UHGV virus genome: UHGV-2050067
Source of the DNA: a virus
Length of the DNA stretch: 56,618 nt
Reading direction: 5' to 3' (one strand)
The notes beneath the pieces were generated by a model that saw only the letters and a program-made list of their open reading frames with translations, did not search any database and was not told where the DNA came from. The translations under genes were made by a program, and so were the position numbers. This document shows, piece after piece, positions 5,922 through 48,832 of the stretch; the first letter of the stretch is position 1; the number at the start of each line of letters is the position of its first letter.

Positions 5922-5955
5922 TCGCTTCGCAGCGACACCGGATTTTTAAAGAGCT
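5922..5955 (-). promoter_or_regulatory. candidate nut-like site (boxA-like GCTCTTTAAAAA plus short hairpin) on the minus-strand transcript
   Basis: Minus strand reads GCTCTTTAAAAA, then 8 nt, then tcgc-tgcgaa-gcga stem-loop, upstream of the 5891 start. Confidence 0.3.
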
Positions 5956-5994: not shown

Positions 5995-6058
5995 TTGCAT
6001 CATTGCAACTATGGCCTTACCTTGTTTGCAAGTTTACAGAATGGCGTTGACAGGTCAA
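5995..6058. promoter_or_regulatory. immunity switch region: three palindromic operator candidates spaced about 26 bp apart
   Basis: TTGCAtcatTGCAA (5995-6008), cTTGtttgCAAg (6021-6032), TTGACaggTCAA (6047-6058) between divergent early and repressor genes. Confidence 0.45.
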
Positions 6059-6796: not shown

Positions 6797-6888
6797 CCTG
6801 GAAAACACCAAAACGTAAACAGAAAACGTTATTTATTATTTAAATATCAATGGGATATAAAATATTTTAAAAAAGTATACAAAATGGA

Positions 6889-6917
6889 TTGACTCGGTGT
6901 TTTACGGGGCGTATATT
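6889..6917 (+). promoter_or_regulatory. sigma70-like promoter (pL-like) for the rightward operon
   Basis: TTGACT, 17-bp spacer, TATATT; about 45 nt upstream of boxA. Confidence 0.5.
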
Positions 6918-6960
6918 GCGAGTCAAAGGAGGTAGCAAGGCAGGGAAAGGGAAGGTTATT

Positions 6961-6998
6961 TGCTCTTTAACAATCTGGTCAGCCGCTGGAAGTGCGGC
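6961..6998 (+). promoter_or_regulatory. nut-like site: boxA (TGCTCTTTAACAA) plus boxB-like hairpin
   Basis: boxA at 6961-6973 is identical to the rrn-type boxA consensus; gccgc-tggaagt-gcggc stem-loop at 6982-6998; between promoter and N-like ORF. Confidence 0.5.
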
Positions 6999-7055
6999 AA
7001 TTAACGAAGATGATTTTTTTATTAAGTATCATCAAGGATATACGGAGATCAGATT

Positions 7056-14733: not shown

Positions 14734-14892
14734 AGTTTACAAAATGGCGTCATTGCGTGATATGGATCACATAATGGCGCTTTTCGCCTTGTTCTGGTGT
14801 ATCCATTTTGTATACTTCAAGCAAACAAAATGCTCTTTAAAAATCCGGCAGCGCTGAAATGCGTAGAAATCACCTGAAAAGGAGAGAGCATT

Positions 14893-26747: not shown

Positions 26748-26825
26748 AATCTGCCTCACAATCACCCACAAGTTTTTCTATTTTTCGCGTAGCAACGCGT
26801 AAACATGTATTCAGGAGTAAACATT

Positions 26826-28196
26826 ATGCCATCAAATTTAGATTTGGCGGTTAATGCTGCCTTGTCACAACGCCAGGCGGCCTATGCCCGCTATGCAGCC
26901 GCCAACCCATTCACTATGGGGATAGATGCCAAACGCGATACTGCATGGAGTGAATACGGATTCAAAGAAGAGATCACGTATAGCGACCTATACAAATTGT
27001 ATCGACGTGGCGGTATCGCTCATGGTGCTGTAGAAAAGATTATTACAACTTGCTGGCGCACAATGCCAATGATGATCGAGGGAACAGAAGACGAGAAAGC
27101 GGAAACGGAAACACCCTGGGAAAGAGAAATCAAGAAACGGTTTGATAACAGGTTCTGGCGCATCATTGCCGAATGTGACCGCCGCCGCCTCATTGGTCGT
27201 TATGCTGGCCTGTTGATTCATGTCAGAGATAACCAGCCGTGGGATCAGCCAGTGACAAAAGGCGTAGGCATTGCCAAATTTACCCCGGTATGGGCTGGCG
27301 CTCTTACACCGAAGGACTTCGAAGAAAACCCTGATAATGAAAACTATGGCCTGCCTACATGGTGGGAATACAAGGAACGCATTAACAATAAGACCATTGC
27401 AAGAAAGATCCACCCTGACCGCATATTTATCTTTGGTGACTATTCTGATGATGCTATCGCTTTCCTTGAACCTTCCTATAACGCATTTGTGTCACTGGAG
27501 AAAGTGGAGGGGGGTAGCGGTGAATCATTCCTGAAAAACGCCGCCCGTCAGCTTGCTATCTCATTCGATAAGGATATTGATTTTCGTTCCCTGGCAGCTA
27601 CATACGGATGCGACGTCACAGAGCTACGCGAAAGATTCAATGAGGCTGCGGCTGAAATGAACAAGGGTAACGATGTGATGATGGCATTACAAGGGGCGAC
27701 AGTAAGCCCGCTGGTGACTGCCGTATCTGACCCGTCAGCAACCTATGACGTCAACCTGCAAACCGCCGCCGCTGGTATTGATATTCCAACCCGCATCCTG
27801 GTTGGGAACCAGCAGGGGGAACGCGCATCAACTGAAGACCTCCGCTATTTCAACAGTCGCTGCATGACACGCAGGGAGGAAATCGGGGGTGAGCTTGAAG
27901 ATCTGTTTCGCAAGATGGCAGATCTCCGCCTTGTCAGTATGCCAGTCGATGTATCAGTCTTATGGGACGACCTAAACGCCATGACCAAAGCCGAACTACT
28001 GGAAGCGGCATACAAAATGGCACAAATCAATCAGGCTTGTTTGGCTACTGGTGAAGAAATATTTAGCGGTGATGAGATCCGCGAGGCTGCCGGATACGAA
28101 GGCCCAGCCAGTGAGGTAGAAACGGAAGAGGAGGACGATGATGAAGGTGAAAAAGATAATCAGGCGAATACCTCCAGCCGCGATAATGCCATCTAA
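26826..28196 (+). CDS. portal protein (putative)
   Basis: ATG at 26826 with SD aggag 8 nt upstream; about 456 aa; acidic C-terminal tail; sits between terminase and head-morphogenesis gene. Confidence 0.6.
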   Translation: MPSNLDLAVNAALSQRQAAYARYAAANPFTMGIDAKRDTAWSEYGFKEEITYSDLYKLYRRGGIAHGAVEKIITTCWRTMPMMIEGTEDEKAETETPWEREIKKRFDNRFWRIIAECDRRRLIGRYAGLLIHVRDNQPWDQPVTKGVGIAKFTPVWAGALTPKDFEENPDNENYGLPTWWEYKERINNKTIARKIHPDRIFIFGDYSDDAIAFLEPSYNAFVSLEKVEGGSGESFLKNAARQLAISFDKDIDFRSLAATYGCDVTELRERFNEAAAEMNKGNDVMMALQGATVSPLVTAVSDPSATYDVNLQTAAAGIDIPTRILVGNQQGERASTEDLRYFNSRCMTRREEIGGELEDLFRKMADLRLVSMPVDVSVLWDDLNAMTKAELLEAAYKMAQINQACLATGEEIFSGDEIREAAGYEGPASEVETEEEDDDEGEKDNQANTSSRDNAI

Positions 28197-34258: not shown

Positions 34259-34939
34259 ATGATTCATGTTCGTACCGGACAATTTGCGGCTGTGGTGAAC
34301 GGTAAGCGCTATAAATTTAACCCGTGTTTCGCTGCGATGGCTAAAATCGGTAATGACAGGGAGCTTGTGGAATGTTTCGCAACCATCCACGGTAGCAAAT
34401 ACCCTTCACGATTACCTACAGATCCAGGCCTCCGCAATCGCATTATGGCGCGGTGTTATGGTGAGATAGTACAAACGTCAATGCGCATCCTGAAATGTTG
34501 CTCAGACGACGAAACAGGCCCGTTATTAGGCGAATGCTGGTTCACTCCTTCGGGTAAATTGAGATTAAAACCGGGAATAATGCCAGTTGATGATGTTATC
34601 ACGCTGGCGCAACACTGCATGTACCACGGTTTAATTGGTGACGGCCCTGAAGAGGTCGCAAGCGAGAGGCGGGAAGGTGAATACAAACCAACGTTCGACA
34701 TACTGGAGTTTGTTTATTCTGCCGTTGCTCACCTGGGGTTATCAGAATCAGAAGCGTGGAATATGACAATGACCGGATATAGGGCCGCTGTGCGTGCTAA
34801 AACGCCGCCAGAAGCAAGAAACAAACAAAAACGACCAGATGTATTACTGGATAAAAAGGCTTATGACGATGGAATGAGGGAGGCTATGGAGATACTAAAA
34901 AGAATGGAAAATAGCGAGCAAGAAAAAGCCCGGGATTAG
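34259..34939 (+). CDS. tail assembly chaperone (G/GT-position)
   Basis: ATG at 34259 within track ORF 34163-34939; about 226 aa; between major tail and tape-measure genes; no convincing slippery heptamer seen. Confidence 0.45.
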   Translation: MIHVRTGQFAAVVNGKRYKFNPCFAAMAKIGNDRELVECFATIHGSKYPSRLPTDPGLRNRIMARCYGEIVQTSMRILKCCSDDETGPLLGECWFTPSGKLRLKPGIMPVDDVITLAQHCMYHGLIGDGPEEVASERREGEYKPTFDILEFVYSAVAHLGLSESEAWNMTMTGYRAAVRAKTPPEARNKQKRPDVLLDKKAYDDGMREAMEILKRMENSEQEKARD

Positions 34940-34945
34940 CCGGGC
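34923..34945 (-). terminator. terminator for the minus-strand moron
   Basis: gcccgg-gattag-ccgggc hairpin; on the minus strand it is followed by TTTTT. Confidence 0.45.
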
Positions 34946-34960
34946 CTCTAAAATTCTGTG

Positions 34961-35320
34961 TTAGTTGAAATACGCATCAACTCTGTGGGCCACGTTTACA
35001 CCATAAGACTCGCCATCCTTAAACGCATTTAGTGACGCTTTATTGTTTTTTGCCGCCTCTTTTAATCCATTGTACTTGCTATTAAGATCTTTCCATTCAG
35101 CGGTTTTTTCTAATACTGGCTTCATTGCGTAATGAATACAGCCAACGTTAAATGGCATTTCCAGATCACCATTACCGTCACCATGCTTTATATCGTACAA
35201 CTGAGCATTATGCGCACATTCACGAAGTATGTATTTTGCGGACGGAGAGTGCTCAGCATTAGCATTAAGCGCAACTCCTGCAAGTACCGCCACGATTAAG
35301 ATTTTTGCCAGACTTTTCAT
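34961..35320 (-). CDS. secreted protein moron (signal peptide, two Cys), unknown function
   Basis: 119 aa; N-terminal MKSLAKILIVAVLAGVALNANA; opposite strand to flanking tail genes. Confidence 0.6.
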   Translation of the reverse strand: MKSLAKILIVAVLAGVALNANAEHSPSAKYILRECAHNAQLYDIKHGDGNGDLEMPFNVGCIHYAMKPVLEKTAEWKDLNSKYNGLKEAAKNNKASLNAFKDGESYGVNVAHRVDAYFN

Positions 35321-35332
35321 ATTTCACCCCGC

Positions 35333-35422
35333 TTAGTTTTTGTTTTTCAGCGCTTTTAACATTTGCTCGATAAAGTCAGCATAGCGCTCATGTTCGTTGG
35401 GGTGGTAGTTTACGTTTTTCAT
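35333..35422 (-). CDS. small ORF (29 aa) upstream of the secreted moron
   Basis: MKNVNYHPNEHERYADFIEQMLKALKNKN with SD aagagga; same strand as the moron. Confidence 0.25.
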   Translation of the reverse strand: MKNVNYHPNEHERYADFIEQMLKALKNKN

Positions 35423-35500
35423 TTTCTTATCCTCTTTTGCTTCCTCCGGTCAATCCGGCCTTTTAAGTCCCTTCGCTCTATCCCTTTCCTTTGGCTTCTT

Positions 35501-35570
35501 TATACAAAATGTGTTCACTGAAGTAAATCCATTTTGTATAAAATAGAGGCATAGATCACATTTTGTATGA
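35501..35570. promoter_or_regulatory. inverted TACAAAATG / CATTTTGTA motif cluster in divergent intergenic region (candidate moron promoter/operator)
   Basis: tatacaaaatg (35501-35511), ccattttgtataa (35529-35541), cacattttgtatg (35558-35570); same motif recurs at other junctions. Confidence 0.4.
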
Positions 35571-35579
35571 GGTTAAATC

Positions 35580-38500
35580 ATGTCAACAAATTTAGGCACA
35601 ATTTATTACGAGGTTGATGCAAAAACGGGTCAGCTTCTGACTGTTCAGCGCGAGGTAGATCGCGCAACTGGCAAAATGGAAAAGGATTTGGAGCGCGTGG
35701 ATAGTGCCGCCACTCAGGCAAGTAAGTCACTGTCAAAGCTATCCTCGATTGCCAGTGCCCTGGGTGCTGCAATGGCAGCAAAAAAAATCATTGAGTATGC
35801 AAACGCCTGGCAGGAGGTGAATAACAGGCTAATCAATAGCGTTCGTGCTGGTGAATCACTGGCAGACGTTAATCAGCGTGTATTTCAGATCGCGCAAAAT
35901 TCACGAAGCGATCTTGATGCTACGGCAGATCTTTACGGTAAATTAGAGCGCTCGACGCGCGACGCTGGTTTATCGACGCAAGCACTTGGTGATATGGTTG
36001 AAACCATTAACAAAACATTCCGCATTTCTGGCGCTTCTGCCGCTGAAGCAGAAGGCGGGATCCGTCAGTTAGGTCAGTCCCTCGCCAAAGGTATTTTGAA
36101 TGGCGATGAATTTAACTCCGTTACAGAAAACGCCACCAGGCTGTCAGAGGGTTTGGCTAAATCATTGGGCGTATCGTCGGCAGAAATGCGCAAGATGGCA
36201 GCAGAAGGGAAAATCACCCGTGAAGCTATCATTAAAGCCCTTAAGGAAATGAAAGCGGAGGTTGATGCTGAGTTTTCTAAACTCACCCCAACTATGCAGG
36301 AGGCTTTCACTGTTGCAGGCAACAACGCAGCTAAATTTTTCGGCAGCAATTCGTCAATTATGGGCGGGATTGGTGCTTTTAATTCGGCAGTTGTAACCCT
36401 GTCAGAAAACCTTAACGAAATAGCTACTGCATTTATTGGCCTTGCCACTGTGATGGGTGGCAGAGTGGTAAATAAATTCGTGGCTGCAACAGCAGAGGCA
36501 TTAACTAACGCTCAGGCAACCAGGGCACAAACGGCAGCGGCACGGCAGGCCGCTCAGAGTGAATTGGCGCTAGCTAACGCTCAGGTGGTATCAGCACGGC
36601 AATCAGCGGCGGCGTCGGCGGCAAGGCTGAGAGAGGCACAGGCTTATGCTGCGGCAAATGCCGGAACAAAATTCGAAGTTCAGACGCTGAAAGAGTTGGC
36701 TGTAGCCAAAGCACAGAACACAGCGGCATCAAACGCCCTTACTGCGGCAGAGCAGCGCCTTGCTGCGGCCCACACTGCGGCGGCGACTAATGCGGGACTA
36801 CTAAAAACAGCATTTAGCGCTACTCTGGGCGCGATCGGCGGTATCCCTGGCGCGTTAATGCTTGCTGTTTACGGGTTGACAGCATATGTAGATCACGTAG
36901 ATCAAACAGCAGAGGCAAACCGCAACCTTGCTGATTCAGTGGATGTTAGTACCGAATCACTGGAGCGAATGAGCAAGGCGGCTAAACTGGCTGGCGCAGA
37001 TAAACTACAAATATCAATGGGTCAGTTAGAGGAAGACATTGACAGTCTTAACAAACAGATTGACCAGGACACGCAGGCGCTGGAACTGAATAAGCGGGCA
37101 CTGGAGAACGCCGAGGAGGGATCACGCGCTTACGCCAACCTATCGAAAGCTAATCAGGAAATCACAGCCCGCCTGACCAGGGAAGAAGCACAGCGTGAAG
37201 ATATTCTCGACCGCCTTAATCAAATGCAGCGCAAATATATTCTGCTTATGCAGGATACAGATCCGCTAATGAAGACCATTGCCACTTCTTTGGGGTTGGT
37301 GGCAGACGCATACGGAAGAATCACCACAGAAGCAGAACGCGCAGCAGCAGCAACGCAACACGCTTCAGCAGCGCTTAACGCAGATCAACAAGAACTAATG
37401 GATCTGGCAAACCGCCGCCTGGAACTGGCAAAACTCGACTCCAAAACAGCCAGCAGGGAAAAGGCGATTGATGGGTTTAAGCGTGAGGCTGAGAAAGCAA
37501 ACCTGACCGGGGAAGCGTATGAAAAATACATGGCTACAATGACCAAAGCATACGACACAGAGCAGAAACGCGCCGAAGCTGAAAGAAAGGCCAGTCATGG
37601 GAAAAAAACTGGCGAAAGCGAGGAGAAAAAACGTCTAAAAGAGGCTGAACGCCTGCGCAAAGAGCTTGAGAAGCGGGGCCAGAATGTTGCAGACAAATAC
37701 AACGTAGAAGCCGCAGCACAACGGAAATTAAAAGAGGATCAGGATGCGCTAAACGCCGCACTTAAAAGCGGAAAAATAAATACCGAACAATATACTACGG
37801 CATGGAAAGCGCTGGTTGCGGCGGAAGAGCAACGCAAACGCCAATCTAGTTGGGATAATCTGGTAAACAATGAGCTGCAACTACGCGGGCAGCTAGACCC
37901 AATTCAGCAGGCGATGAACGAATGGGCGGTTCGCAAGCAGATGCTCACAGATTTAGGCGCTACAGAGCAATATATGAGGGAGCAAGAAAAAGCGCATGAG
38001 AGGGAAATGCTATCACTTCAGTGGGAGAGGTATAAGGCGCAGTCATTGACCAACCAACTGTTAGGCGATGCTGTTGATGCAATGAGCGGATCTGCAACTA
38101 ACGCGCTTGTCGGCCTGATTAACGGTACTCAAAATTGGCAACAGGCGATCGCTAACATTGGCAATACAATCCTTTCCTCCGTGATTGGTACGATTGTTCA
38201 AATGGGTACTGAGTGGGTCAAGCAGCAATTGATTGGTGATACGGCAAGAACTATGGCAACAACCAAAGCACTGGCAGAGGCGGCAGCGTTATCATCAGCG
38301 TGGGCTACTCCTGCATACTTGGCAAACGTAGCCACGATGGGCGGCGCGGCGACCGTGGGGACTACGAGCCTTACTACTGGTGTGGCTGGAGCAAAAGCGC
38401 TTGGCCTGGCTGGCGCTCGTTATAACGGCGGTGCGGTGGCTGCGGGCAGCCTCTACAAGGTCGGCGAACACGGCAAACCGGAAATCTTTCAGGCAAGCAA

Positions 38501-38732
38501 TGGGAGTCAGTACATGATTCCTGGTGACAACGGCAGGGTAATACCAAATCGCGACATTGGCGGCAGTGGTGGCAACGTTAGTATAAACGCGCCGATTAGT
38601 GTTTACCCACAAAATGGATGGAGTGATGAGGACGCCAAAAAGCTACAGCAGGATATGGAAAAGATCTGCATGGGCCTGATACACCGCGAATCATCCAGAC
38701 CGGGCGGAATGCTGCAACCGCGCCGCAAATAA
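35580..38732 (+). CDS. tail tape measure protein
   Basis: 1050-aa ORF, Ala/Gln-rich extended helical composition, between chaperone and minor tail genes; followed by a terminator. Confidence 0.85.
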   Translation: MSTNLGTIYYEVDAKTGQLLTVQREVDRATGKMEKDLERVDSAATQASKSLSKLSSIASALGAAMAAKKIIEYANAWQEVNNRLINSVRAGESLADVNQRVFQIAQNSRSDLDATADLYGKLERSTRDAGLSTQALGDMVETINKTFRISGASAAEAEGGIRQLGQSLAKGILNGDEFNSVTENATRLSEGLAKSLGVSSAEMRKMAAEGKITREAIIKALKEMKAEVDAEFSKLTPTMQEAFTVAGNNAAKFFGSNSSIMGGIGAFNSAVVTLSENLNEIATAFIGLATVMGGRVVNKFVAATAEALTNAQATRAQTAAARQAAQSELALANAQVVSARQSAAASAARLREAQAYAAANAGTKFEVQTLKELAVAKAQNTAASNALTAAEQRLAAAHTAAATNAGLLKTAFSATLGAIGGIPGALMLAVYGLTAYVDHVDQTAEANRNLADSVDVSTESLERMSKAAKLAGADKLQISMGQLEEDIDSLNKQIDQDTQALELNKRALENAEEGSRAYANLSKANQEITARLTREEAQREDILDRLNQMQRKYILLMQDTDPLMKTIATSLGLVADAYGRITTEAERAAAATQHASAALNADQQELMDLANRRLELAKLDSKTASREKAIDGFKREAEKANLTGEAYEKYMATMTKAYDTEQKRAEAERKASHGKKTGESEEKKRLKEAERLRKELEKRGQNVADKYNVEAAAQRKLKEDQDALNAALKSGKINTEQYTTAWKALVAAEEQRKRQSSWDNLVNNELQLRGQLDPIQQAMNEWAVRKQMLTDLGATEQYMREQEKAHEREMLSLQWERYKAQSLTNQLLGDAVDAMSGSATNALVGLINGTQNWQQAIANIGNTILSSVIGTIVQMGTEWVKQQLIGDTARTMATTKALAEAAALSSAWATPAYLANVATMGGAATVGTTSLTTGVAGAKALGLAGARYNGGAVAAGSLYKVGEHGKPEIFQASNGSQYMIPGDNGRVIPNRDIGGSGGNVSINAPISVYPQNGWSDEDAKKLQQDMEKICMGLIHRESSRPGGMLQPRRK

Positions 38733-38736
38733 ACAA

Positions 38737-38766
38737 AACCCCGGTACAATGCCGGGGTTATCTTTT
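38737..38766. terminator. bidirectional rho-independent terminator
   Basis: aaccccgg-tacaatg-ccggggtt hairpin with T/A-rich tracts on both sides. Confidence 0.6.
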
Positions 38767-38941
38767 AGTTGTTCTCAAAACCTGTGTATCCTCTCTCAAT
38801 TTTCCCGCCTCTTACGCTTTTAGCGAATACAGCGTCAGTGTATCTGAAAAACGGTTCTGTGTATGTCTCACCTTTGCTATCCATCCATTTAACTACCCAG
38901 GCCATGCGTTTAATGTTGCTTTTGCTTGCTGTAGTTTTCAT
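38765..38941 (-). CDS. small protein (58 aa), third gene of minus-strand moron cassette
   Basis: MKTTASKSNIKRMAWVVKWMDSKGETYTEPFFRYTDAVFAKSVRGGKIERGYTGFENN with SD ggagg; stop abuts the terminator; absent from the track. Confidence 0.4.
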   Translation of the reverse strand: MKTTASKSNIKRMAWVVKWMDSKGETYTEPFFRYTDAVFAKSVRGGKIERGYTGFENN

Positions 38942-38972
38942 TTTGTTTTCCTCCGCAACATTCCAGTCTGTA

Positions 38973-39227
38973 TCACTTGTGAGCGCCTTTTACGCCACAT
39001 AACTTGTTATAGGCATGGTGCTCAACAATTAACCAAACCTTCAAATCTTCGCTAAACAGCCTCCAATCAAGATTGATATCCATTTTGTATCCGTAACCGT
39101 CGCGTAACTTTTTGGGGTAAACTTCTTTTCTCAGAAAGGCGTTAAGCAATTCCTTACCTTTCTTGATGATCCGGTCCTGTGCGTTTTTCTGTGCTTTCAA
39201 GTTTTTACCAATCGCCACCAATTTCAT
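38973..39227 (-). CDS. RelE/YafQ/ParE-superfamily-like toxin candidate
   Basis: ATG at 39227 with SD gtgggg; ...YKMDINLDWRLFSEDLKVWLIVEHHAYNKL resembles the RelE/YafQ C-terminal pattern. Confidence 0.4.
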   Translation of the reverse strand: MKLVAIGKNLKAQKNAQDRIIKKGKELLNAFLRKEVYPKKLRDGYGYKMDINLDWRLFSEDLKVWLIVEHHAYNKLCGVKGAHK

Positions 39228-39245
39228 AACACACCCCACAATCCA

Positions 39246-39401
39246 TTAGTTGACCACTTTCAGGAAGAAATCACGGTATTCATCTTCTTTTGCATTCATC
39301 ATGAATTGACCGTATTTGAATGCATCATCAAAGCCCTTCACAATCGCAACTTCCACCTGTTCGAATGCTTTGTTCAGCATCACAACCACATAGCGTTCCA
39401 T
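39246..39401 (-). CDS. small protein (51 aa) upstream of the RelE-like gene; possible cognate partner
   Basis: ATG at 39401 with strong SD agggggg; MERYVVVMLNKAFEQVEVAIVKGFDDAFKYGQFMMNAKEDEYRDFFLKVVN. Confidence 0.4.
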   Translation of the reverse strand: MERYVVVMLNKAFEQVEVAIVKGFDDAFKYGQFMMNAKEDEYRDFFLKVVN

Positions 39402-39571
39402 GTTGTCCCCCCTTTGTCGGTACTGCTTTTTCTTCTTGCTTACTATATACATCTTGTCACGCCTTATGTGAAGCCATTTTGTAAACTGGTTATAATTCTT
39501 GTGATGAATTTCTCATTTTTCGCGTAGAAGCGCGTAAAGATGTATGCAATATGTAACTTATAGGGGGAATC

Positions 39572-39925: not shown

Positions 39926-40122
39926 TGGGGGTTGTTATGTACGGGACTTGTGTAGTTGACAAAACTTACGCTTTTACATTGTTTGACGACTATGAGATCA
40001 ACGACCTTACTGTAAAAGCTGACAACGGCGATATATGGTATCTTCACGACGTTGGTGATGGGTACGTGGGGTGTAGATCCCGGGAAGGGAAGGAGGTTTT
40101 ATTTTTGGTTGATGGCGTATAA
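39925..40122 (+). CDS. hypothetical protein (65 aa)
   Basis: ORF track; start overlaps the M stop; followed by a terminator. Confidence 0.35.
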   Translation: MGVVMYGTCVVDKTYAFTLFDDYEINDLTVKADNGDIWYLHDVGDGYVGCRSREGKEVLFLVDGV

Positions 40123-40126
40123 ACAC

Positions 40127-40155
40127 AACCCCGCGAGAAGCGGGGTTATTGTTAT
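40127..40155. terminator. bidirectional rho-independent terminator
   Basis: aaccccgc-gagaa-gcggggtt hairpin followed by attgttatt. Confidence 0.55.
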
Positions 40156-40268
40156 TCCATTTCCATTAATGCTATATTTTCCGCTATCGTTTTCCAGTCC
40201 AGTTCTACAGCATGAACACCAAATACTATCAATCCCATTATTATTAGCGCCAAAACTTCTATTTTCAT
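40152..40268 (-). CDS. mini-ORF, 38-aa hydrophobic peptide, last gene of minus-strand cassette
   Basis: MKIEVLALIIMGLIVFGVHAVELDWKTIAENIALMEME with SD aggtga. Confidence 0.3.
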   Translation of the reverse strand: MKIEVLALIIMGLIVFGVHAVELDWKTIAENIALMEME

Positions 40269-40278
40269 AATCTGTCAC

Positions 40279-40527
40279 CTATAAGTTATCACGCAGATAA
40301 TTAACGCCCTTATCAGTGACGAATGAATGATTAACCTGGTTTTCGTCCGTCATGATGATAAATAACTTTTCCTGTAGGTATTTCGCTTTTGGGTACAGCG
40401 TTAAACAGACCTGGTACAGTATCCCGCGCTCAATCAGCAAATCAATAAATTCGTGCTCATGATAACCGATGAGGCGGGCGGCCTGTTTCAACGTGTACAC
40501 ATAATCGCCGTGATTGCGCCTCCCCAT
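40279..40527 (-). CDS. hypothetical protein (82 aa), moron cassette
   Basis: ORF track; opposite strand to tail genes. Confidence 0.45.
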   Translation of the reverse strand: MGRRNHGDYVYTLKQAARLIGYHEHEFIDLLIERGILYQVCLTLYPKAKYLQEKLFIIMTDENQVNHSFVTDKGVNYLRDNL

Positions 40528-40536
40528 GTTGCCGCC

Positions 40537-40887
40537 TTATTTATCGAATGCGCCCAGGTTATCTATGCAGAAGTCTTTCGCAGCTTTTTCGTATTCGCGT
40601 TTTGCTTCTGGATCGTCAGCAGGGAAACCTTTTGCGTGTATTTCACCAGGGCAAGACTGATCCATAGAGTCAGCAAATTCAACACTGACGTTAAAGTTAA
40701 TATCTTTCGGGTTCATCTCTTCCACCTTATCCTGCACTTGTACCGGAATAACATAATAATCACGAGCACTAGACCAACAGCGGAGCAATTCACAACCTTC
40801 ATCACGCGCTGATTCGAATGTGTCAAATAGCCCCATGCTTTCCCATTCGCATTTATCAGTCCACACGTCTAACCTGTATTTTTTCAT
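40537..40887 (-). CDS. hypothetical protein (116 aa), moron cassette
   Basis: ORF track; acidic, four Cys. Confidence 0.45.
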   Translation of the reverse strand: MKKYRLDVWTDKCEWESMGLFDTFESARDEGCELLRCWSSARDYYVIPVQVQDKVEEMNPKDINFNVSVEFADSMDQSCPGEIHAKGFPADDPEAKREYEKAAKDFCIDNLGAFDK

Positions 40888-40901
40888 TTTTTGTTAACCT
40901 C

Positions 40902-41132
40902 CTATTTGGCAGGTTCGATCCTGTATCCCAAAACGCGGTCATCTTCAGCAAGTAAAAGCGCGTCAGTTAGTGCCTCGCCTTCGTCTTTATACAGAGCTAC
41001 AGTCATTTCCCTGCCGCCTGACAGGAATACCGTCAACCTCCACACCTTATCAGCCATCCCACACCTCCGCGCCATTTTGTTAACCCTGCTTCCTTTTGAG
41101 TACAATATACATATTGTAAAAAGCGCTATCAA
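40902..41132 (-). CDS. hypothetical protein (76 aa or shorter), first gene of moron cassette
   Basis: ORF track; inverted repeat TACAATAT-ac-ATATTGTA lies just upstream at about 41100-41120. Confidence 0.4.
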   Translation of the reverse strand: MIALFTICILYSKGSRVNKMARRCGMADKVWRLTVFLSGGREMTVALYKDEGEALTDALLLAEDDRVLGYRIEPAK

Positions 41133-48585: not shown

Positions 48586-48832
48586 AGTAGTTAGCTACAC
48601 AGTTAGAAGGGCTACCGATGCGGCGCATGTTGTGATCGAGTTCGTGACACCATTGACCAGTATAAGGCAGTTTTTCAGTGTCATAGACAAGATGCCCGTT
48701 AACATCATAAACAACATCCTGTGGAATTACTCCACTATTCGGCAGGTTATGCAATGCAGCTTCCTTATCAACAGCACATCCAGTAAGAGCTACAGCCGCA
48801 GCGAACAAAACCACTTTGAACATGTTTTTCAT
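48584..48832 (-). CDS. lipoprotein moron (possible Cor-like superinfection-exclusion lipoprotein)
   Basis: 82 aa; signal peptide with lipobox (VALTGC); opposite strand between J and tail fiber genes. Confidence 0.55.
   Translation of the reverse strand: MKNMFKVVLFAAAVALTGCAVDKEAALHNLPNSGVIPQDVVYDVNGHLVYDTEKLPYTGQWCHELDHNMRRIGSPSNCVANY

Follow-up and report, generated by a model that had tools for sequence, protein, structure and literature searches.

An antisense cassette for a predicted secreted protein, and the exchange site it occupies among prophage tail genes

Genes and features of the locus

The virus genome UHGV-2050067, analysed here as one stretch of 56,618 nucleotides (the window), carries on its minus strand a small cassette that lies between two plus-strand tail genes. 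It consists of a promoter, a short open reading frame (ORF), a gene for a 119-amino-acid protein with a signal peptide (here called the cargo) and a terminator. Comparison with related phages shows that the slot between the two tail genes is a site where unrelated families of envelope-targeted proteins replace one another. The features are as follows.

34259-34939, plus strand: DUF6246 gene, the left flank (Pfam PF19759, E 3e-53; RefSeq annotation of a 99.7% identical prophage)
34920-34953, minus strand: intrinsic terminator of the cassette, a hairpin with a U-run, at the left edge of the exchanged module
34961-35320, minus strand: cargo gene, 119-amino-acid precursor (ORF table)
35333-35422, minus strand: micro-ORF of 29 amino acids, MKNVNYHPNEHERYADFIEQMLKALKNKN (ORF table), with the Shine-Dalgarno sequence AAGAGGA
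35499-35540, minus strand: sigma70-type leftward promoter, with -10 TATAAA at 35504-35499, a 17-nt spacer and -35 TTTACT at 35527-35522
35580-38732, plus strand: gene for the tape measure protein (TMP), 1050 amino acids, the right flank (Pfam TMP_3, E 8e-55)

The cargo gene and its cassette

The first 22 residues of the cargo (35255-35320) form a signal peptide: MKSLAK is its n-region, the 12 residues ILIVAVLAGVAL are its hydrophobic core and NANA is its c-region, with E as the next residue. The cleavage site, between ANA and E, is of the AXA type used by signal peptidase I (SPase I), and a lipobox is absent. Both the peptide and the site were called by rule, through inspection of the sequence, and the Sec/SPase I pattern is kept in every member of the cargo family that was aligned. 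This peptide is the sole hydrophobic segment of the cargo. The mature protein would be a soluble chain of 97 amino acids (34964-35254) with a mass of 10.9 kDa and an isoelectric point of 6.6. There are only two cysteines, C35 and C61, and both are invariant in 10 of 10 aligned family members, along with Y42, G51, P68, Y83 and the motif G103-E104-x-x-G107. An AlphaFold2 model of the mature cargo (predicted local distance difference test score 94.5, predicted template modelling score 0.86) is an up-down four-helix bundle, with the cysteines on helices 1 and 2.

The cargo is a real gene under purifying selection, with dN/dS of 0.14-0.17 at dS 0.7-1.1 between alleles that are 76-88% identical. The most recent allele pair, the window and locus L022, differs in the cargo by 14 non-synonymous and 4 synonymous changes, which gives a near-neutral dN/dS of about 0.9-1.5 from small numbers; the adjoining DUF6246 gene has 9 non-synonymous to 16 synonymous changes in the same pair. 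The cargo on the L022 branch may be under relaxed or positive selection, the counts being too small for a decision.

Upstream of the cargo, the micro-ORF ends 12 nt ahead of the cargo ATG, and the Shine-Dalgarno sequence of the cargo, GGGGTG, comes immediately after its stop codon. This spacing makes translational coupling from the micro-ORF to the cargo likely. Across 12 distinct DNA versions (21-codon core) the micro-ORF has a pN/pS of 0.07, and 15 of the 24 variable columns are third codon positions, which argues that it encodes a conserved peptide and is not a mere spacer.

Downstream, the terminator begins 8 nt past the cargo stop codon. It reads AGAG, a stem GCCCGG (34945-40), a loop CTAATC, the returning CCGGGC (34933-28) and then UUUUUCUU, with the U-run at 34927-34920, and it folds at -15.7 kcal/mol (z = -2.2). 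The annotation of phage mEp515 lists the same hairpin as ARNold terminator T13. An Rfam scan of the cassette region gave sub-threshold matches only, and these were caused by the terminator. On the plus strand the hairpin has a poor tail, CUCUAAAAUU, so termination would be mainly leftward.

A reading made earlier from this DNA alone, the sequence-only reading, had described a minus-strand gene for a 119-amino-acid protein with a cleavable signal peptide and two cysteines, preceded by a 29-residue ORF and followed by a hairpin overlapping the 3' end of the chaperone gene. All of these are present: the signal peptide has the expected n-h-c pattern of a Sec-type peptide with an AXA site, recognised by inspection, and the TAG stop codon of the DUF6246 gene (34937-39) sits within the hairpin loop. 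What had been overlooked is that the 29-residue ORF is a conserved micro-protein.

A variable slot in the tail operon

Judged by its sequence, the window is an mEpimmI-type Escherichia coli prophage, of the group treated in PMC11893012, a paper in which the slot between the DUF6246 and TMP genes goes undiscussed. Escherichia phage mEp515 is 97.5% identical to the cassette region, and prophages in five complete E. coli genomes are 98.4-99.7% identical to it. RefSeq annotation of the 99.7% identical prophage describes a temperate siphovirus: among its genes are those for a LexA-family repressor, ERF/SSB, NinB/NinG/RusA and Q, for lysis, for the terminase and the capsid, and for a lambda-like tail tip.

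The comparison set of 58 mEpimmI-group loci combines an IMG/VR scan for DUF6246 with loci gathered before. An antisense insert of 508-1320 bp lies between DUF6246 and TMP in 58 of 58 loci, whereas among distant DUF6246 relatives (28-41% identity) the gap to TMP is 23-183 bp in 18 of the 25 loci with a detectable TMP. Since the insert occurs in all loci of the group and there is almost no gap in most of the distant relatives, the cassette would be a true moron by the Hendrix/Juhala definition. Its G+C content is 40-42% across 34800-35700, against 46-51% on both sides, and at the level of sequence it has a promoter with conserved hexamers and a hairpin with a U-run of its own. The moron proposed in the sequence-only reading is upheld as an extra unit of low G+C with promoter, terminator and signal peptide; the upstream motifs, which that reading had assigned to this gene, are not private to it. 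Lack of conservation of the ORF in related prophages had been named as grounds for abandoning the idea, and the family is in fact conserved in the slot, as one of at least six alternative cargos.

The first cargo gene encodes a signal-peptide protein, a lipoprotein or a membrane protein in all 58 loci, and the families, at least six and unrelated, are distributed as follows.

Type A, 13 of 58 loci: the cargo family of the window, 116-129 amino acids, secreted
Type B, 18 of 58 loci: 137-139 amino acids, secreted; includes mEp021 gp63 and mEp010
Type C, 2 of 58 loci: 165 amino acids, secreted
Type D, 19 of 58 loci: VasI-domain lipoprotein with a 124-amino-acid lipoprotein or a 106-amino-acid protein
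Type E, 5 of 58 loci, with 3 more alongside type A: membrane pair of 35 and 100 amino acids, in the 5 loci as sole cargo
Type F, 1 of 58 loci: 245-amino-acid lipoprotein

The VasI domain of type D matches Pfam PF11319 (E 2e-16), and its RefSeq name is TagO. Types A, B and C have a common signal peptide ending in AFNANA and common upstream DNA despite unrelated mature domains; that they might be divergent homologues was ruled out, with an hhalign probability below 1% between the mature domains. The micro-ORF is found in 36 of the 58 loci, ahead of unrelated cargos, and loci without it can keep a 3' remnant, for example L016. A tblastn search of 50,697 phage records found the micro-ORF in six mEpimmI-type phages only.

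Exchange is seen in comparisons of single loci. Between the window and L014, the terminator protein, the tube, DUF6246 and the TMP N-terminus are 94-98% identical and the cargo is 32-37% identical; between the window and L020, dS is 0.06 in TMP and 0.95 in the cargo. Nucleotide identity to allelic loci falls abruptly at 34950 and is not regained until about 35650, so that the initial ~70 nt of the TMP gene are inside the exchanged module, and the exchanged unit spans about 34950-35650. On these comparisons the slot is a hypervariable multi-family exchange site, a point missed by the sequence-only reading.

The position of the cassette could also suggest that the cargo serves the tail as a structural protein or in assembly. 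The DUF6246 product is presumed to be a tail assembly chaperone, its position between the tube and TMP genes being the only ground (a Phage_tail_2 tube gene, by Pfam, lies directly upstream), and the cargo might, for example, stand in for a missing gpT-like frameshift extension of that chaperone. Apart from its place between the presumed chaperone and TMP genes, nothing speaks for such a role. The cargo lies on the strand opposite the late operon and bears a signal for secretion, while tails assemble in the cytoplasm; unrelated proteins substitute for it, it is absent from distant relatives with the same tail genes, and no conserved plus-strand ORF runs across the cassette. A tail role is effectively refuted.

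Relatives of the cargo

A word-indexed search of 5.8 billion proteins returned four clusters only, all at least 76% identical to the cargo, and a full HMMER search, run with a profile on 1.84 billion representatives, contributed four further small clusters of 116-129 amino acids at 23-37% identity. Two WD40 repeat proteins from the HMMER search were discarded, as their matches were spurious and confined to the repeat 'SPDGKY'. Among the 1.84 billion proteins the cargo family amounts to five clusters at 50% identity; all come from the DUF6246-TMP slot, and in every context recovered all branches of the family occupy that slot in the same phage type. Profile searches of Pfam (to E 0.1), PHROG, NCBIfam and PADLOC gave no match for the 119-amino-acid protein, a profile search of PDB sequences to E 10 gave no useful match, and Foldseek against BFVD returned nothing for the cargo model. 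The cargo thus appears, from these searches, to be a new orphan protein family inside a known kind of element. Structure prediction, which the sequence-only reading had proposed, gave a confident four-helix bundle, with no informative match in structure or sequence.

These results bear on two other accounts of the cargo. It might be a factor of lysogenic conversion from which the host gains in the gut, with no bearing on phages or toxins, either as a periplasmic stress chaperone or binder or as a virulence or colonisation factor; lambda Bor/Lom and prophage SodC are the models for this. A small all-alpha periplasmic protein with one disulfide presumably bears a loose resemblance to acid- and envelope-stress chaperones. 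The moron architecture and the secreted product fit such a role, as does the prevalence of the mEpimmI group among human-gut E. coli (PMC11893012). Against it, profile and fold searches found no similarity of the cargo to HdeA/B, Spy/CpxP, Bor or other such families, and a single housekeeping benefit leaves unexplained why at least six unrelated cargos alternate and why alleles that are 30-40% identical sit in near-identical backbones. A conversion factor of this kind is distinctly unlikely.

Alternatively, the cargo might be an orphan protein of the periplasm that gives immunity to envelope toxins or neutralises them, namely peptidoglycan or membrane effectors of type VI secretion systems (T6SS), colicins or other bacteriocins, or lysozymes, which would shield the host from competitors and not from phages. 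Immunity proteins of this kind are typically small, periplasmic, disulfide-bonded, all-helical binders, much as the cargo would be. The allelic diversity and the exchange of cassettes fit an arms race, and one of the alternative cargos has the T6SS-associated VasI domain. Pfam and NCBIfam searches up to E 0.1 gave no cargo match to the lysozyme inhibitors Ivy, MliC/PliC, PliG or LprI/DUF1311, and the combination of similarity to a known T6SS immunity family (Tai4/Rap type) and a neighbouring cognate effector was not found for the cargo. Overall, we regard an immunity function as improbable.

A promoter element found throughout the phage

The region upstream of the micro-ORF contains three exact copies of the motif TACAAAATG.

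35503 (plus strand), 35530 (minus strand) and 35559 (minus strand): exact matches to TACAAAATG at the cassette
35559-35567, minus strand: the third copy, which overlaps the stretch immediately upstream of the TMP ribosome-binding site

An upstream element TATACAAAATGG at 35540-35529 covers about -48 to -37 and is separated by 1 nt (A) from the -35 hexamer; transcription would start near 35492. The promoter arms, which are the two inner TACAAAATG copies, are inverted repeats of 14 nt set 16 nt apart, and this arrangement can also be read as a rightward promoter, weaker and in mirror image (-35 TTCACT at 35514-19, -10 TATAAA at 35537-42). In the 40 distinct sequences from the 58 loci the upstream element, both arms and the two hexamers are kept, as is the TTTTG that precedes the -10, and the spacer varies. 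A promoter scan that requires T at position 6 of the -10 does not list this promoter, because its -10 ends in A. The element at -48 to -37 may work as a proximal UP-like element, serve as a class II-type activator site, or belong to an operator.

The sequence-only reading had counted three motifs in the promoter region of this gene. All three are there, although they belong to a phage-wide element and the outermost, TMP-proximal copy is not conserved in relatives, unlike the two inner ones. The window holds 13 exact TACAAAATG copies against 0.81 expected, and none of 100 shuffles reaches 13. The same promoter design, in register, is found at 6876-6925 (plus strand), with TTGACT/TATATT, and at 39485-39440 (minus strand), where it drives a second antisense island; a variant occurs at about 41130-41085 (minus strand) and upstream of the repressor gene (6033-6052, plus strand). 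The recurring design is T[A/T]TACAAAATGG, 1 nt, the -35, 17 nt, TATAWW and then, a little further on, CAAAGGA.

The idea that TACAAAATG is the site of a known E. coli factor found no support, the only candidate being a CRP-like half-site, TGTGATC, near the third copy. Of the 40 promoter sequences, 38 keep this heptamer (35551-35557), which lies beside the TMP ribosome-binding site, even when they lack the third TACAAAATG copy. Taken together with its flanking bases, the heptamer looks like a CRP half-site whose centre is about -60.5 from the leftward start. Elsewhere, in the interval between two genes of the early region (14736-14814), two inverted copies of GAAGT[T/A]TACAAAATGG surround a segment of ~48 bp that contains a small GC hairpin.

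The boxA/nutR1-like site GCTCTTTAACAA comes after the 6876-6925 promoter, which would make this a PR-like early promoter. It is part of an 18-nt inverted pair containing the boxA-like GCTCTTTAACAA, at 5937-5954 and 6962-6979, with a small hairpin at 6980-7000; the pair is probably the counterpart of nutL and nutR1, sites that have been described in mEp021.

A PR-like early promoter must be silent in a lysogen. As the TACAAAATG promoter module is also present at such a promoter, the expression in lysogens that the sequence-only reading had thought likely is not established, and as far as sequence can tell, co-regulation with the early genes is as plausible as constitutive expression. The cargo might then be an early lytic-cycle gene, switched on together with PR after infection or induction, whose product alters the envelope and so excludes secondary phages or spares the progeny from being lost to debris. 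T4 Imm/Sp and T5 Llp are the models here. The cassette and 6876-6925 promoters have in common the upstream element, the register, the type of -10 and the initial transcribed CAAAGGA; the boxA-like site that follows the latter fits, and transcription converging with the late operon would turn the cassette off late in infection. However, the cassette promoter lacks the inverted repeat TTGACTCG...CGAGTCAA that is specific to P6878 and might be a repressor operator, the literature gives no definition of the Rep operators, and HK97 gp15, encoded in the same slot, is expressed from the prophage (PMC3594210). An early lytic role seems unlikely.

Proposed mechanism and function

In the mechanism that we propose, the conserved sigma70 promoter at 35499-35540 would drive a leftward transcript that ends at the 34920-53 hairpin. 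This transcript would encode the 29-residue micro-protein, which would stay in the cytoplasm, and then, probably by translational coupling, the 119-amino-acid precursor. The precursor would be exported by Sec and cleaved after ANA22, with a probable C35-C61 disulfide, and the end product would be a soluble periplasmic four-helix bundle of ~11 kDa. Promoter, micro-ORF and signal-peptide region together would serve as a conserved 'launch pad', behind which recombination swaps unrelated, envelope-targeted mature domains. Protection would come from binding in the periplasm and not from catalysis.

As to the function of the cargo, we tentatively favour, at somewhat less than an even chance, protection at the level of the envelope, as superinfection exclusion or another block on incoming phages, like HK97 gp15. 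A conflict at the envelope is suggested by the facts that all cargos are envelope-targeted, that unrelated cargos turn over, and that deep alleles sit in near-identical backbones. It is also suggested by the exclusion of phages by mEpimmI lipoproteins and by the anti-phage activity reported for proteins that have a VasI-like fold. Several observations weigh against this view. Self-exclusion in the mEpimmI group has been assigned to separate Lpp lipoproteins (PMC11893012). Family A is found next to TMPs of 1045-1051 as well as 780-786 amino acids; type B is common to mEp021, which uses OmpA, and mEp010, which uses LamB, and type A occurs in mEp515, which again uses OmpA. Co-variation of the cargo with TMP length or receptor type was accordingly rejected, and because the cargo tracks neither, a self-directed, TMP-specific exclusion is not favoured. 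The design that the cassette promoter shares with the PR-like promoter, moreover, makes expression from the prophage uncertain.

A bolder version, which we consider doubtful, takes the slot as a 'periplasmic effector launch pad'. It would have a fixed 5' module of bidirectional promoter, micro-protein and signal peptide, and recombination inside the signal-peptide coding region would exchange the unrelated mature domains, as a phage counterpart of polymorphic toxin/immunity loci. The four-helix family would then be a new class of soluble periplasmic proteins that block injection, and the micro-protein would be a partner or a regulator.

Tail-region morons are a main source of prophage-encoded envelope defences, and this locus supplies a small natural collection of at least six envelope proteins, all unrelated, behind one conserved promoter and signal-peptide module. 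With mEp021, mEp515 and mEp010 in culture, swapping of cargos is easy and could reveal new periplasmic mechanisms against phages or competitors. The locus could further serve to identify what regulates the TACAAAATG promoter element found throughout the phage.

Neighbouring genes and other antisense islands

The TMPs of the mEpimmI group fall into two length classes, 1045-1051 and 780-786 amino acids, with N-termini that are ~30% identical, and which class is present does not depend on the type of cargo in the neighbouring slot. At the portal position (26805-28196, plus strand), RefSeq labels the gene in the near-identical prophage 'anti-CBASS protein Acb1 family protein', which may be an annotation quirk.

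Two further antisense islands lie in the tail module. The second island (38765-39452, minus strand), between TMP and the next tail gene, has three small cytoplasmic ORFs of 68, 88 and 58 amino acids. The middle one is ParE-family toxin-like according to RefSeq, with Pfam ParE_like in relatives, and PADLOC gave no match for any of the three. The third island (40099-41075, minus strand), before the tail L gene, contains a KilAC-like antirepressor fragment and other small ORFs, and has a strong promoter, TTGATA-17-TATATT, of the same module type as that of the cassette.

Comparison with known systems

Among the closest known systems is gene 15 of HK97, the original moron (Juhala 2000, Cumby 2012; review PMC3594210), which sits between the genes for the tail chaperone and TMP and specifies the superinfection-exclusion protein gp15. 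Like gp15, the cargo is a small envelope-directed protein in the chaperone-TMP slot, with its own promoter and terminator, and is absent from related phages. Gp15 is a YebO-like inner-membrane protein, whereas the cargo would be a soluble four-helix bundle with a cleaved signal peptide and has no detectable similarity to it; a YebO-like sequence with an inner-membrane anchor was not found in the cargo (no Pfam match to E 0.1). The cargo also differs from gp15 in being antisense to the tail operon, in having a conserved micro-ORF ahead of it and in being one allele of a multi-family hotspot.

A second comparison is with envelope exclusion proteins that are likewise encoded in the structural gene cluster, namely the Lpp lipoproteins through which mEpimmI phages exclude superinfecting phages (PMC11893012), Cor of phi80, N15 and mEp167, and Llp of T5. 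These are lipoproteins that track the receptor (OmpA, LamB, FhuA), whereas in the cargo the site is one for SPase I, a lipobox is missing, and the alleles track neither receptor nor TMP type. The window has such a gene elsewhere: at 48600-48830 (minus strand), downstream of the J-like tail tip gene, there is a gene for a small lipoprotein (MKNMFKVVLFAAAVALTGC...) that has a terminator of its own and a related promoter region. It is probably a type-A Lpp exclusion lipoprotein, of the kind demonstrated experimentally for mEp021 and mEp515 in PMC11893012.

Proteins whose fold is VasI-like (SDIC4), for which anti-phage activity has been reported (bioRxiv 10.1101/2024.01.28.577318), and the T6SS accessory proteins TagO/VasI are connected to the locus through the VasI-domain lipoprotein that occupies the same slot in 19 of the 58 loci. 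The 119-amino-acid cargo itself is without a VasI domain, and the shared slot is its only tie to these proteins.

The classical morons bor and lom of lambda are likewise independent units of atypical composition in the late region that encode envelope proteins. They differ from the cargo in their proteins and in their functions, serum resistance and adhesion, and to our knowledge morons of this type are not known as multi-family exchange sites with a common signal peptide. The architecture described here is therefore a familiar one, to which are added a multi-family hotspot with a shared module, a micro-ORF that is a real gene and a motif that is a phage-wide promoter element.

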